Source of the DNA: Nanobdellota archaeon
GTDB taxonomy: Archaea; Nanobdellota; Nanobdellia; Pacearchaeales; GW2011-AR1
Assembly: GCA_027334715.1 (NCBI GenBank)
Contig: DAHWUG010000001.1
Coordinates: 107,158-171,157 of the forward strand
DNA length: 64,000 bases
Reading direction: 5' to 3'
In this document: piece by piece, positions 40,451 to 44,232 of the stretch
How positions within the stretch are numbered: the stretch's first letter is position 1
Layout of the letters: every line of letters starts with the position of its first letter
Translations under genes and position numbers: made by a program
The notes under the pieces: model-generated
Database searches by the model: none
What the model was told of the DNA's origin: nothing
The model's input: only the letters and a program-made list of their open reading frames with translations

Positions 40451-40879
40451 ATGACAGACGTTTTTGACAACACAATCCTTTGCAACAAATGCAATGTTAA
40501 AATGCAGAAAGCCCAGATTATCAGAAATGGATTTGCATTAAGGGCTGTTGTATGCCCAAACTGCGGCTCAAAAATAATTCATCCAAATGATGAAGCAGAA
40601 TTTGGAAAATTCAACGACTTAAAAAGCAAGGAATTTCATGTCAAAATGAGGCTTGTCGGTAATAGCTATGCTGTTTCAATACCAAAAGAAATAGTCTCCT
40701 TCATAAAAGAACAGGAAAAAATAATGAATGACATGGTCAAGCTTTGCTTTGAAGATTTTGGAAGATTAAGCCTGAATTTCGGGCAATCTCAGATAAATGG
40801 GCCTGAAAAGGAAGCTGAAAAAGAAATTCATGCTAATTTAAATGGAATAAGGGTAACTGAGATAAAAAAGAAAAAATGA
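40451..40879 (+). CDS. zinc-ribbon plus SpoVT/AbrB-type swapped-hairpin domain protein
   Basis: 142 aa with CNKCN...CPNCGS followed by MRLVGNSYAVSIPKEIVSFIKE, an AbrB/MazE-like motif. Confidence 0.6.
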   Translation: MTDVFDNTILCNKCNVKMQKAQIIRNGFALRAVVCPNCGSKIIHPNDEAEFGKFNDLKSKEFHVKMRLVGNSYAVSIPKEIVSFIKEQEKIMNDMVKLCFEDFGRLSLNFGQSQINGPEKEAEKEIHANLNGIRVTEIKKKK

Positions 40880-41016
40880 AAATAGTGCTGGAAATAAGCG
40901 AAAAAGAGAAAAGAGCATTAAAAGAAGCTGGGCGTGGCATAAAGGACTCATTCAATAAAATAAAAGATAGCTTTCAGGTAAGGATTGTCAAGGACAAAAA
41001 GGAGAGGAAAAAATAA
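40876..41016 (+). CDS. 46-aa Lys/Glu-rich small ORF (not in track)
   Basis: Its ATG overlaps the upstream stop (ATGA), and its stop lies 2 nt before the cdc48 ATG. Translation: MKIVLEISEKEKRALKEAGRGIKDSFNKIKDSFQVRIVKDKKERKK*. Confidence 0.3.
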   Translation: MKIVLEISEKEKRALKEAGRGIKDSFNKIKDSFQVRIVKDKKERKK

Positions 41017-41018
41017 AG

Positions 41019-43367
41019 ATGACAGACAAAAAAAATGTCCAATTAAAGGTTGTTGAAGCGCAGCAGGATGACGCTTACAAAGGCATAGCAAGAATAGACA
41101 GTGATGTTATGCATGACCTTGGAATAAGGAGGGGAGATGTTATTCTCATAAAAGGTAATCGGGAAACTGTTGCAATAGCTGACAGGGCCTATCCTGCAGA
41201 TGTCGGAGAAGGCATAATAAGGATTGATGGAATTCTAAGAAAAAATGCAAAAACAGGAATTGGGGAGTCTGTAACAGTCTCAAAAGCAGAAATAAAAGAA
41301 GCAAAAAAAGTAATGATTGCGCCAGCACAAAAGAATATAATGGTTCAAGCAGAGCCTGAAAATTTAAGAAAAGGACTCCTTGGAAGAGCTATGATAAAAG
41401 GAGATGTCGTTGTTCTTGGTGGAGTTCAAAGAAGAAAGGACTTATTTTCTGACGAATTTGGAGGAGATTTTGGAGACATGCTTGGAGGAATTGGAGACAT
41501 GCTTGGAGGAATGGGATTCGGCCAGCTAGGAGGAGGATTTACGCAGATAAAATTCCTTGTTATAAGCACAAATCCAAGCCAGCCTGTTGTAATAACAGAG
41601 AATACAGAGGTAACTTTGAATCCAAAAGCTGTTGAAATAACAGAAGAAACAATACCTGAAATAACTTATGAAGATATTGGCGGATTATCAGAAGAAATAA
41701 GAAAAATAAGGGAAATGGTAGAAATTCCACTGAAACACCCGGAGATATTTGAAAGATTAGGTGTAGAGCCACCAAAAGGAGTTTTACTTCATGGTCCGCC
41801 CGGAACAGGAAAAACTTTATTGGCCAAGGCAGTTGCAAATGAATCAGATGCAAACTTCATTCTTCTTAATGGGCCTGAAATAATGAGTAAATTTTATGGA
41901 GAATCTGAAAAAAAGATAAGGGATATTTTTGAAGAAGCTGAAAAAACGGCTCCGGCAATTATTTTCATAGATGAAATAGATGCAATTGCTCCAAAAAGAG
42001 AAGAAGTAACAGGAGAAGTTGAAAGAAGAGTTGTTTCACAGCTGCTTACTATGATGGACGGATTGAAATCAAGGGGAAAAGTTGTTGTTATTGGCGCAAC
42101 AAACAGAGTAAACTCAATTGATCCTGCTTTAAGAAGACCTGGAAGATTTGATAGGGAACTTGAAGTGGGAGTTCCTAGTAAAGAAGGAAGACTTTCAATT
42201 CTGAAAATTCATTCAAGAGGAATGCCATTTACAAAAGAGGTTAAGCTTGATGAAATAGCTGCTGTAACACACGGATTTGTTGGTGCAGACTTAGAAGCAT
42301 TGTGCAAAGAAGCTGCTATAAGTGTTCTAAGAAAACTATTACCAAAAATAAGACTTGAAGCAGAAGAACAAATTCCTCCAGAAATGCTCGAAAAACTAGT
42401 AATTAAACATGAAGACTTTTTAGATGCCCTTAAAGTAGTAAGGCCTAGTGCATTAAGAGAGTTTTTCGTTGAAAAACCTAATGTAACATGGAAAGACATT
42501 GGAGGGCTTGAAAAAACTAAAGAATCCTTAAAAGAATCAATTGAGTGGCCAATTAAAAATCCGGAAGTGTTTGCGCAAATTGGGATAAGACCACCAAGAG
42601 GCATTTTACTTTATGGATCACCAGGAACAGGTAAAACACTTCTTGCTAAAGCAGTTGCAAATGAATCTGAAATTAATTTTATTTCAGTTAAAGGCCCAAA
42701 TTTACTAAGTAAATGGGTAAACGATTCACATGCAGCTATAAGAAAACTTTTTGAAAGAGCAAGACAAGTTTCTCCATGTATTATCTTTTTTGATGAATTT
42801 GAATCTATTGCTGGACGTAGAGGTTTTTCTTCAGATGGGGGCTCTCAAGAAAATCTTAAAGTTATTAACCAACTTTTAGCAGAAATGGACGGTCTTGAAG
42901 ACTTAAAAGGAATAATAGTTATCGGAGCTACAAACAGGCCAGACATGCTTGATCCAGCTGTTTTAAGACCTGGAAGATTTGATAGATTTATTTTAGTTGA
43001 CGTTCCAGATGAAGAAAGCAGATTAAAGATACTTGAAGTTCATACCAAAAATACCCCTTTAGCAGAAGATATTTCTCTAAAAGACATGGCAAAATTAACA
43101 GAAGGATTTGTCGGAGCCGATATTCATTCATTAGTTATAGAAGCTGGTATGAATTCTATTCGTAGGCATTTTTTGGTTACTAAGAAAAATTCAATAAAAA
43201 AAGATGATGTTTTTGTAGTTACAAAACAAGATTTTCAAGAAGCATTCAAAAGAGTAAAACCTTCAGTTTCTGCTGATTATGCTAAAATGTACAAAAAGAT
43301 TGAAGAAAATTACCTTCAAGTTGCTAAAACAGGTGGATCAGATAACAAACCGATTTATACTGGTTAG
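41019..43367 (+). CDS. cdc48: Cdc48/VCP/VAT-type AAA+ ATPase (N domain plus D1 and D2)
   Basis: 782 aa with two Walker A motifs (GPPGTGKT and GSPGTGKT) and two Walker B motifs (IIFIDEIDA and IIFFDEFES). The N domain begins LKVVEA...GIARID. It carries a Gly-rich insertion in the N domain. Confidence 0.9.
41471..41512 (+). repeat. perfect in-frame 21-bp tandem duplication inside cdc48
   Basis: TGGAGACATGCTTGGAGGAAT occurs at 41471-41491 and again at 41492-41512, encoding [14 protein letters not shown]. Confidence 0.85.
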
Positions 43368-43401
43368 ATAAACTTTTATACCTTATTTTTTACTAAAGTG
43401 A

Positions 43402-44232
43402 ATGCCAGAACCAAGTAATTTCGCTCATGAAATACTAAAGAGTAAAAAAGAATTTTTTATAAACACTGTTCGTGATGCTTCTAAAAAATTCGGAATTTCA
43501 CAACCTATAGTTAGATTTTGGAATTGCCCAAACTTTAGCGGTCATGAAATAGCTCATTGTCACACTAATTCCTTTACCATTTGCATTTCCGAGTCCGTAT
43601 TATCTGATTTAGACAATAGTGAGATATATGAAACTGCAACACATGAAGTTACTCATTTAATTCACAAAAATCATGATGTGCATTTTCACAACATTCAAGA
43701 TGCCTTGAAAATAGCTTCTTTTAAACCAGAAAGGGGTGGAATAGTGCAAATAAGTGAAAAAGAGTTGTCTAAAACAAATAAAGACAAAAACAATTACTCT
43801 CCTAACAAAAGAAAATGCAATTACATCCAATCAAAAGAACATATCAAAAATACAGTTAAAGAATGCATTTTTTGTAAACGATTTTTTTGTGAAAAACACT
43901 TAACCCCAAGACCAATATTATACAATCAGGATTCATATATAATTCCTTACCGTTTTGAGAAAGAAGTTAACAATCAAGATTCTCACCCATGCCCGAATTA
44001 CACTTTAGTTTTTCTTACTAAAATAAAGAAATTTAGAGAAGAAGAAAATAAAAAAATTAATAATTTATTAAGAAAAAATAAATATAAAGAATTTAGTATC
44101 AATTTTAAAGAAGATAATCAGAGAAAAAAGATTGTTGAAGTTAAACCAAAAACAAACAATATAAAAAAATCTCTTATTCTAAAAAAGAAGAAATCTCTTT
44201 TTAAACGTATTAAAAATTTCTTAGAAAATTGA
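43402..44232 (+). CDS. WLM/SprT-like zinc metalloprotease fused to AN1-like zinc finger and Lys-rich tail
   Basis: 276 aa. HEVTHLIHKNHDVHF matches the HExxHxxxxxH(D)..F pattern of WLM/SprT minigluzincins. CIFCKRFFCEKH...HPC resembles the C-x2-C-x4-C-x2-H...H-x-C half of an AN1 finger. Confidence 0.55.
   Translation: MPEPSNFAHEILKSKKEFFINTVRDASKKFGISQPIVRFWNCPNFSGHEIAHCHTNSFTICISESVLSDLDNSEIYETATHEVTHLIHKNHDVHFHNIQDALKIASFKPERGGIVQISEKELSKTNKDKNNYSPNKRKCNYIQSKEHIKNTVKECIFCKRFFCEKHLTPRPILYNQDSYIIPYRFEKEVNNQDSHPCPNYTLVFLTKIKKFREEENKKINNLLRKNKYKEFSINFKEDNQRKKIVEVKPKTNNIKKSLILKKKKSLFKRIKNFLEN

Follow-up and report, generated by a model that had tools for sequence, protein, structure and literature searches.

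A family of archaeal minigluzincins with an AN1-like zinc module, and an anchorless member encoded beside cdc48

The archaeal minigluzincins selecase (MJ1213), projannalysin and proabylysin (PDB 4qhf-4qhj, 4jix and 4jiu) are soluble, stand-alone catalytic domains of about 110 residues in which an HExxH motif is followed by a third histidine on the next helix. A catalytic domain of the gluzincin type is carried on a membrane anchor, facing the cytoplasm, by HtpX (M48) and BlaR1 (M56). In eukaryotes a related domain is found in the WLM protease Wss1, a partner of the unfoldase Cdc48 (p97). Eukaryotic p97 uses dozens of cofactors, including Wss1 and proteins with an AN1 zinc finger; our literature search turned up no protein cofactor dedicated to an archaeal Cdc48. 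Here we describe a 276-residue predicted zinc peptidase whose gene lies directly downstream of cdc48 in DNA of a Nanobdellota archaeon (contig DAHWUG010000001.1, positions 107,158 to 171,157; this whole stretch of 64,000 nucleotides is called the window below). The protein joins a minigluzincin domain to an AN1-like zinc module, an architecture that it shares with a large archaeal family. The family thus unites two domain types that are linked to p97 in eukaryotes within one archaeal polypeptide, and is a plausible prokaryotic relative of both.

The open reading frames (ORFs) of the locus, and the parts of the peptidase gene, are as follows.

40451-40879, + strand: Zn-ribbon/AbrB-like protein, 142 residues, with sub-threshold family matches and the segment RLVGNSYAVSIPKEI
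40876-41016, + strand: 46-residue ORF rich in Lys and Glu, overlapping the 142-residue gene by ATGA; unsupported as a gene
41019-43367, + strand: cdc48, 782 residues, starting 2 nt past the 46-residue ORF; AAA+ unfoldase of the Cdc48/VAT type
43402-44232, + strand: peptidase gene, 276 residues, starting 34 nt past cdc48
43402-43731, + strand: minigluzincin (selecase/WLM-like) zinc-peptidase domain, residues 1-110, from profile and fold matches
43816-43992, + strand: AN1-like two-zinc module, residues 139-197, from its Cys/His pattern and fold matches
43993-44232, + strand: long helix and basic tail ending in an amphipathic helix (helices of the model at residues 198-233 and 266-275)

The ORF list confirmed the positions given in a preliminary description of this DNA, namely four same-strand frames of 142, 46, 782 and 276 residues at 40451-44232 with an ATGA overlap and gaps of 2 and 34 nt. 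The motifs which that description had quoted for the 276-residue protein were placed at residues 81-95 (HEVTHLIHKNHDVHF), 155-166 (CIFCKRFFCEKH) and 195-197 (HPC).

A minigluzincin domain joined to an AN1-like zinc module

The zinc site of the 276-residue protein, HEVTHLIHKNHDVHF, reads H81-E82-V-T-H85-LIHKN-H91-D92-VH-F95, which corresponds to HExxH-x5-HD-xx-F. In an alignment of 64 family members H81, E82 and H91 are invariant and H85 and F95 nearly so. The domain would be expected to bind zinc through H81, H85 and H91, with E82 acting as the general base. Pfam models matched the protein below their cut-offs, WLM (PF08325) with E 9.4e-5 (23.0 bits against a cut-off of 26) and SprT-like (PF10263) with E 9.4e-4 (19.5 bits against 25.6). 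When the 64 aligned members were searched one by one and matches at E<=0.01 were counted, WLM was found in 28 (best E 2e-6), zf-AN1 in 15 (1.5e-7), YgjP-like in 13 (6e-6) and SprT-like in 12 (9.4e-4), and one member, P0019, exceeded the WLM cut-off with 28.5 bits. These matches uphold the earlier identification of the protein as a protease. The signature had also been described as that of Wss1, and its spacing is indeed the same as that of the Saccharomyces cerevisiae Wss1 segment HELTHNLFGPHDKKF in the profile alignment.

The closest structural relatives are nevertheless archaeal minigluzincins and not Wss1 or SPRTN. A profile search against PDB chains gave selecase MJ1213 (E 2.6e-4), HtpX (2.6e-4) and Wss1p (6.8e-4); the 276-residue sequence used alone gave only low-complexity matches of its Lys-rich tail to interferon gamma. 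An AlphaFold2 model built on 22 sequences had a predicted local distance difference test (pLDDT) score above 90 for residues 1-110, and most of residues 150-230 were confidently modeled too. In a Foldseek search of the PDB with this model the top seven matches, all with E<=1e-3, were selecase or jannalysin. The E-values were 1.8e-4 for selecase, 1e-3 for projannalysin, 1e-2 for proabylysin, 5e-2 for the HtpX domain and 2e-2 to 7e-2 for Wss1 of S. cerevisiae and S. pombe, whereas SPRTN (6mdx) was matched with an E-value of 0.78 and a probability of 0.33. BlaR1 was among the distant matches (E 2-3, not significant). Because the Foldseek ranking and the PDB profile search agree, we assign the catalytic domain to the minigluzincins, about equidistant from the archaeal stand-alone enzymes, from M48/HtpX and from WLM, with motif spacing of the WLM type.

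The stand-alone minigluzincins are thus the best match by both profile and fold (TM-scores normalized to the target of 0.52-0.66 for the selecase, jannalysin and abylysin matches). They end after some 110 residues, whereas in the family of the 276-residue protein a two-zinc AN1-like finger follows and, as a rule, a membrane anchor as well. The third zinc-binding histidine of the window protein stands after five residues and is followed by D-xx-F as in WLM, while selecase has one extra residue before this histidine. The likeness to Wss1 lies in WLM being the best Pfam family, in the aligned motif and in the fold match, and Wss1 is a partner of Cdc48 just as the window gene is a neighbor of cdc48. 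Unlike Wss1, the window protein stays below the WLM cut-off, has no SHP or VIM motif and no ubiquitin or SUMO context, and most of its relatives are membrane proteins; conversely, Wss1 has no AN1 finger. HtpX is similar in profile and fold, and HtpX models of NCBIfam gave weak matches as well; LemA genes lie near several family members. The family differs from both HtpX and BlaR1 in that its catalytic domain is N-terminal to the transmembrane helices rather than embedded between them, that its third ligand is a histidine after a short spacer, and that it has an AN1-like finger. The window protein itself differs further in having no transmembrane helix at all.

The second part of the protein is a putative two-zinc module with the pattern C139-x7-H147-x7-C155-x2-C158-x4-C163-x2-H166-x28-H195-x-C197, which includes CIFCKRFFCEKH. 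In the 64-sequence alignment C139, C155, C158, C163 and H195 are invariant and H166 and C197 nearly so. The family consensus is C-x4-C-x(8-10)-C-x2-C-x4-C-x2-H-x(15-45)-H-x-C; the C-x7-H form, in which the second cysteine is replaced by a histidine three residues later, occurs in 9 of 159 sequences, namely those of the window clade and its nearest relatives. The preliminary description had likened this segment to an AN1 finger. As a resemblance this stands. The order of ligands in the family, C C C C C H H C, is that of the AN1 fingers of Cuz1 and the ZFAND proteins, the core C-x2-C-x4-C-x2-H is exact, and an aromatic residue precedes the fifth cysteine. In the window protein this residue is F162, directly before C163, and the column is mostly Phe and sometimes Tyr or Leu in the family; a Phe before the fifth (penultimate) zinc-binding cysteine is strongly conserved among AN1 domains (PMC5035049). 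A model of the isolated module (residues 128-236) had a pLDDT of 82.7, and its best small-domain matches in Foldseek were the AN1 structures 1x4v, 5ij4 (Cuz1) and 1wfe, with a root mean square deviation of 1.4-1.9 Å over 29-30 columns, at E-values of 0.9-6.8 that are not significant.

Membership in the Pfam AN1 family is another matter. The Pfam scan gave no zf-AN1 (PF01428) match to the window protein at all. The homologous module of relatives stayed below the cut-off of 27.9 bits, with scores of 16-19 bits for an alignment to positions 1-30 of the 40-position profile. Matches above the cut-off come from a second, canonical finger downstream of the family module, at residues 260-294 of P0014 and 273-310 of P0020. 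The window module fits the canonical pattern C-x2-C-x(9-12)-C-x(1-2)-C-x4-C-x2-H-x5-H-x-C only in its core. Its first pair is C-x7-H (C-x4-C in the family) and not C-x2-C, and an insert of 28 residues (15-45 in the family) takes the place of the five residues before the final H-x-C. The module is therefore a degenerate AN1-like one that falls outside Pfam AN1 membership. It would bind two zinc ions and may hold a substrate or partner polypeptide.

A word-indexed search with the single sequence found just two relatives (58-62% identity), P0002 and P0003. An exhaustive profile search started from these three sequences, in which cluster representatives were counted, revealed a family of 331 representatives at E<=1e-3, of which 230 remained at the stricter threshold of E<=1e-10. 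The majority of the 331 cover query residues 4-230, so the fusion of a protease to a Cys/His module is the architecture of the family and not a local accident. The family is archaeal, unnamed and uncharacterized, and no Pfam or NCBIfam model captures it, although two members bear the Joint Genome Institute (JGI) name 'nucleic acid binding AN1-type Zn finger protein'.

Many family members are predicted membrane proteins. Of the 101 sequences that contain both motifs, 52 have a transmembrane segment behind the protease and zinc module; many of the others are fragments. The C-terminal domains of long members are of the CAP (P0005, P0051 and P0146), transglutaminase (P0014 and P0152) and NosD (P0034) types. 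The only DNA-linked architecture seen was that of P0027 (830 residues), in which the protease and zinc module are fused to a UvrD/Rep-type helicase and no transmembrane segment is present. A comparative-genomics study by Burroughs, Iyer and Aravind (Mol Biosyst, 2011) reportedly proposed that AN1 domains of prokaryotes cooperate in protein processing with diverse membrane-associated peptidases, and the architecture of the present family agrees with that proposal.

By a hydrophobicity scan the window protein, P0002 and P0003 are all devoid of transmembrane segments. The tail of the window protein instead has 25 Lys or Arg against 8 Asp or Glu in 78 residues, and in all three proteins the tail ends in a predicted amphipathic helix (hydrophobic moment 0.53-0.66). 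Judged from these sequences, the window clade appears to have lost the membrane anchor and to carry a basic tail in its place, which may bind membrane or nucleic acid.

Further observations concern the genomic setting of the family at large. Members adjoin genes for phage-type integrases, resolvases or rve transposases at L013:5069-6343, L016:138-932 and L035:493-2555, and throughout locus L015 a member lies within a long run of small same-strand ORFs without Pfam matches, which suggests that some copies ride on mobile elements. A viral origin was considered and rejected after two scans of IMG/VR found no family member there. Genes for LemA, a 2H-phosphoesterase (2_5_RNA_ligase2) and a NUDIX protein lie as a group within a few kb of members at four to five loci (L018:2968-4880, L008:9606-10984, L026:4327-5999, L030:4669-5854 and the contig of P0156); the grouping could stem simply from synteny between related genomes, or the association could be real. 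One of these loci, L008, is on a contig binned as 'uncultured Bacteroidota bacterium' (CAZRXH010000039.1) and holds a 461-residue member of 38% identity with LemA/2H/NUDIX neighbors of archaeal type, and could reflect mis-binning or horizontal transfer.

Gene order and transcription around cdc48

About 23 independent lineages were examined, with flanks as available; a locus search with a 12-sequence alignment, which reduced to a single narrow pattern, had given just 7 genome and 13 metagenome loci. The peptidase gene lies directly downstream of cdc48, with a spacer of 34-36 nt, on three contigs of a single clade (the window, L001-L004/L019 and L005), within which identity is 76-87% for Cdc48 and 58-62% for the protease. 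A metagenome-assembled genome (MAG) assigned to Nanoarchaeota (L006/L021) has the same syntenic block of cdc48, M24 peptidase, PUA and RsmB genes, the L006 locus beginning within cdc48. Here the protease homolog, a 414-residue multi-pass membrane protein, is encoded on the far side, at a distance of about 5.8 kb from cdc48. No Cdc48-like gene was present in the available flanks of L007-L018, L020, L022-L029, L031-L033 and L035-L037 or on the contig of P0156. The preliminary description had proposed to look for conservation of the neighborhood across archaeal genomes. The adjacency was found only on the three contigs and is absent in about 20 other lineages, so that it is a trait of the window clade and not of the family.

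The remaining locus, L030, is from an ANME-like archaeon (ANME, anaerobic methanotrophic archaea) and presents a different link to Cdc48. A 603-residue ORF at L030:238-2049 (+ strand) consists of the family protease domain in frame with CDC48_N, CDC48_2, one AAA module and a lid. The next gene (L030:2262-3131) encodes a CAP-like protein with a transmembrane segment, and L030:3334-3978 encodes a 214-residue protein with the AN1-type motif CQFC-x10-CPKC-x4-C-x2-H-x3-H-x-C. The fusion is a single case on one metagenome contig, where a chimeric assembly is possible. P0162, its nearest relative among the proteases (75% identity), is not fused and does not adjoin cdc48, and its nearest Cdc48, P0160 of ANME-2, is likewise unfused and does not adjoin a protease gene. 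When the protease and N-domain part of the fusion was used to search for further cases, ordinary Cdc48 proteins and the unfused P0162 were all that it returned.

The spacing of the four window genes had been taken to mean that they are tightly packed, and the distances are correct, yet a single operon does not follow from them, given a conserved promoter-like element in the 34-nt spacer. The elements relevant to transcription are listed here.

40421-40426, + strand: TATA-like box TTTTAA, 30 nt before the ATG of the Zn-ribbon/AbrB-like gene; likely promoter of this gene, the 46-residue ORF and cdc48
41001-41007, + strand: Shine-Dalgarno-like site GGAGAGG, 11 nt before the ATG of cdc48
43368-43381, + strand: ATAAACTTTTATAC, resembling a TFB recognition element (BRE) with TATA box, directly past the cdc48 stop; TATA part at 43375-43380, 27 nt before the ATG of the peptidase gene
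44306-44311, + strand: TATA-like box at -29 of the downstream receiver-domain gene

Across the window 27 of 49 long ORFs have a TATA-like box (aaaCTTTTTATA / aaTTTATAAA) whose first nucleotide lies 25-31 nt upstream of the ATG, while genes inside operons have no such box and show GGAGG-like sites instead. Since the box starts at this distance from the ATG of genes that come first in their unit, the pattern implies that mRNAs in the window are mostly leaderless. cdc48 has no TATA box at -25 to -31 and is preceded by the Shine-Dalgarno-like site, and on these grounds it is probably carried on a polycistronic mRNA from the promoter of the Zn-ribbon/AbrB-like gene. The transcription unit would thus comprise the Zn-ribbon/AbrB-like gene, the 46-residue ORF, if it is a gene, and cdc48. 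In the spacer behind cdc48 the 14-mer ATAAACTTTTATAC is identical in the window, L001 and L005, and the rest of the spacer diverges. The peptidase gene would accordingly have a leaderless promoter of its own and form a separate unit behind cdc48, with read-through from cdc48 possible. A scan for sigma-70 promoters and terminators found no more sites than in shuffled sequences, a model that is not relevant to archaea.

Possible roles of the peptidase and its relation to Cdc48

Taken together, these observations make it rather probable, though by no means assured, that the 276-residue protein is a zinc metallopeptidase of the large unnamed archaeal family, in a soluble or peripheral variant, that it serves protein quality control or regulatory proteolysis, and that its position behind cdc48 is a trait of its clade. 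In most members a cytoplasmic module would be tethered by one or more membrane helices, in some with CAP, transglutaminase or NosD domains outside the cytoplasm; in the small DPANN clade that includes the window protein the anchor would have been lost, and the basic tail and amphipathic helix kept. The proteolysis might take place at the membrane surface. The gene would be read from its leaderless promoter behind a housekeeping cdc48, itself co-transcribed with the Zn-ribbon/AbrB-like protein. Substrates unfolded by Cdc48 could be handed to the protease, but the data do not require it.

The preliminary description had favored a closer relationship, a Cdc48-coupled protease module without ubiquitin. 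In such a module the soluble protease would dock on Cdc48 and cleave extracted or unfolded substrates as a ubiquitin-free counterpart of Wss1/SPRTN and p97, the AN1-like finger or the basic tail mediating docking or substrate capture. Several of the findings that point this way also weigh against regarding the cdc48 position as a mere clade trait. The adjacency, with its 34-36-nt spacer, has been kept in three lineages whose proteases have diverged to about 60% identity and whose Cdc48 proteins share 76-87%. At L006 less than 6 kb still separate the homolog from the orthologous cdc48. The L030 fusion is an independent, in-frame joining of the protease domain to CDC48_N, CDC48_2, an AAA module and a lid, and two independent links to cdc48 in about 23 lineages exceed what we would roughly, without calculation, expect of a random gene pair. 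The anchor was lost specifically in the clade beside cdc48, so that its loss coincides with the move, as a change of partner would predict; the transmembrane scan behind this statement was a crude hydrophobicity threshold, a further reservation about a family that we describe as largely anchored. The WLM-type spacing, as in the aligned Wss1p segment, fits as well. Against docking stand the lack of adjacency in about 20 other lineages, the location of the protease gene outside the cdc48 operon behind its own conserved promoter, and the uniqueness of the fusion, whose nearest relatives P0162 and P0160 are neither fused nor adjacent. None of the SHP, VIM and VBM patterns matched the window protein, P0002 or P0003 in a regular-expression search, these being eukaryotic motifs from which archaeal docking motifs may differ. 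Moreover, Cuz1 contacts Cdc48 through its ubiquitin-like domain and not through its AN1 finger (PMC5035049). We regard a Cdc48-coupled protease as possible but on balance doubtful. The still more specific proposal is unlikely, namely that an anchorless peptidase was recruited as a Cdc48 cofactor in one DPANN lineage, as a ubiquitin-independent forerunner or analogue of the Wss1/SPRTN-p97 and AN1-protein-p97/proteasome systems, with the AbrB-like protein as a further regulator or adaptor.

A role in the repair of DNA-protein crosslinks like that of Wss1 and SPRTN, with the basic tail binding DNA and activating the peptidase, is the least probable of the roles considered here. In its favor, the best Pfam match is to WLM, the tail is strongly basic, P0027 is fused to a UvrD-type helicase, two JGI names mention nucleic acid binding, and 5-9 kb upstream there are genes for Nre and a type IA topoisomerase. 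These points are outweighed by the membrane association of about half or more of the family: because the family is largely membrane-bound and bears extracytoplasmic CAP, transglutaminase or NosD domains, crosslink repair fits it poorly. In addition, the SPRTN fold match is weak (E 0.8) and archaeal minigluzincins rank above Wss1, the protein has no recognized DNA-binding domain, clustering of neighboring genes revealed no repair genes recurring beside family members, and Lys-rich tails are common in AT-rich genomes. Those same membrane-bound architectures (P0005, P0014, P0034, P0051, P0146 and P0152), in which peptidase and zinc finger are followed by a transmembrane segment and a CAP, transglutaminase or NosD domain, would suit a regulatory membrane protease of the BlaR1 or anti-sigma kind. 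There an outside sensor would control a cytoplasmic peptidase that cleaves a regulator, the window protein being a detached, soluble effector with the receiver-domain or the AbrB-like protein as candidate targets. BlaR1 is a distant fold match and a receiver-domain gene follows directly downstream in the window, but the match is not significant (E 2-3), L001 has no receiver gene, the window protein lacks any sensor or transmembrane part, and no conserved regulator partner emerged from the neighbor clustering of family loci. We consider such a role improbable.

Between these readings the preferred one remains that of a soluble or peripheral family peptidase whose neighborhood with cdc48 is confined to its clade. 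Should this variant dock on Cdc48, the origin of cofactor-mediated proteolysis by p97 would become testable in a ubiquitin-free setting; should it not, an uncharacterized and mostly membrane-anchored archaeal peptidase family has been defined, and the adjacency is an accident of gene order. What is new here is the anchorless variant beside cdc48 together with the single protease-Cdc48 fusion. They make a worthwhile lead for archaeal Cdc48 cofactors, with a central claim that rests on one clade and one fusion.

Cdc48, the AbrB-like protein and the surroundings of the locus

Two features lie outside the parts described so far.

41433-41543, + strand: insertion of about 37 residues rich in Gly, Phe, Met and Asp in the N-domain of Cdc48 (approximately residues 139-175), from the CDC48_2 alignment
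44335-44760, + strand: gene for a stand-alone response-regulator receiver domain (Response_reg, E 2.1e-9), with its own TATA-like box at -29

The assignment of cdc48 in the preliminary description was confirmed. The NCBIfam model TIGR01243 matched with 1045 bits against a cut-off of 803, and Pfam found CDC48_N (E 4.8e-28), CDC48_2 (E 6.5e-8), two AAA modules and two lids, so that by its sequence the protein is unambiguously predicted to be a housekeeping Cdc48 of the Cdc48/VAT type with N, D1 and D2 domains. Orthologs are 87% (L001) and 65% (L006, the Nanoarchaeota MAG) identical. The N-domain insertion is evident from the CDC48_2 match, in which 96 residues align to 59 profile positions; it is similar in L001 and L006 and absent from the ANME-2 protein P0160, and thus appears to be a lineage-specific loop in the cofactor-binding domain. 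The C terminus of Cdc48 reads ...KPIYTG (43347-43367), and the window, L001 and L006 proteins all end in Y-T-G. In the proteasome-docking motif HbYX the tyrosine is penultimate. The C-terminal tyrosine of these Cdc48 proteins is the third residue from the end.

The 142-residue protein upstream of cdc48 had been described as a Zn-ribbon plus SpoVT/AbrB protein. In favor of this are an AbrB-type signature, GNSxAVxIPKEI, within RLVGNSYAVSIPKEI and two N-terminal CxxC pairs (CxxC...CxxC) with weak Pfam matches to the zinc ribbons DUF7479 and DZR. All family matches are sub-threshold: MazE_antitoxin (PF04014) was matched over only 16 residues, 67-82, with E 7.8e-4 and 19.8 bits against a cut-off of 24.7, and doc_partner (TIGR02609) with E 8.9e-5 and 22.8 bits against 55.9. 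A PDB sequence search with this protein gave nothing significant. We consider 'Zn-ribbon and AbrB-like' a reasonable provisional label. In L001 the gene directly upstream of cdc48 encodes an ortholog of 69% identity, and in ANME-2 the cdc48 gene of P0160 is preceded, in the same position, by a regulator gene with an ArsR-type helix-turn-helix. The protein is probably a small DNA-binding regulator that is co-transcribed with cdc48, and by analogy it would most simply be a regulator of its own operon. That it might act as a Cdc48 adaptor had been suggested from the kinship of AbrB and Cdc48 N-domain barrels; such kinship of folds is no evidence of binding.

The 46-residue ORF is an open frame with the ATGA overlap as described. 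It had no family match in Pfam, NCBIfam or PADLOC and no tblastn match in any of the loci fetched. It lies within an A-rich insertion of about 140 nt in the window. The nearest relative, L001, does not have this insertion, and its AbrB-like stop and cdc48 start are 1 nt apart. As a gene the ORF thus appears unsupported. The Zn-ribbon/AbrB-like gene ends in A_AAA_AAG AAA AAA TGA (40864-40879), and the 46-residue ORF is open in the -1 frame from the heptamer. This arrangement might reflect a frameshift or a homopolymer error, yet the heptamer is nothing special, 31 in-frame heptamers of this kind being present in the 16,752 codons of the window. A programmed -1 frameshift at A_AAA_AAG that would join the two frames was on this ground rejected as unsupported.

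Downstream, the receiver gene and an M24 peptidase gene (44741-45718, - strand) converge, with a 20-nt overlap at 44741-44760. The receiver gene is missing from L001, in which the M24 gene directly follows the protease gene, and this absence suggests that the receiver gene is a recent insertion between the two; it lies outside the conserved block. PADLOC gave no match for the protease, the 46-residue ORF or the receiver, and the matches of Cdc48 to IetA/TRIP13 reflect generic AAA similarity, so that a defense system was rejected.

The window has a G+C content of about 35% and contains TFS, Nre and a gene set of archaeal type; three unusually long tRNA genes likewise fit an archaeal genome. Beyond their own clade the best matches of its Cdc48 and M24 proteins are in Nanoarchaeota (DPANN) MAGs. 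The gene for Nre, a repair-associated protein of the NreA type, lies at 31439-32668 and that for the type IA topoisomerase, which has a C-terminal zinc ribbon, at 33830-36184; both are 5-9 kb upstream of the cdc48 block and have no established link to the protease. Three tRNA genes, at 37860-37979, 2550-2670 and 13477-13585, are 109-121 nt long and presumably contain introns.

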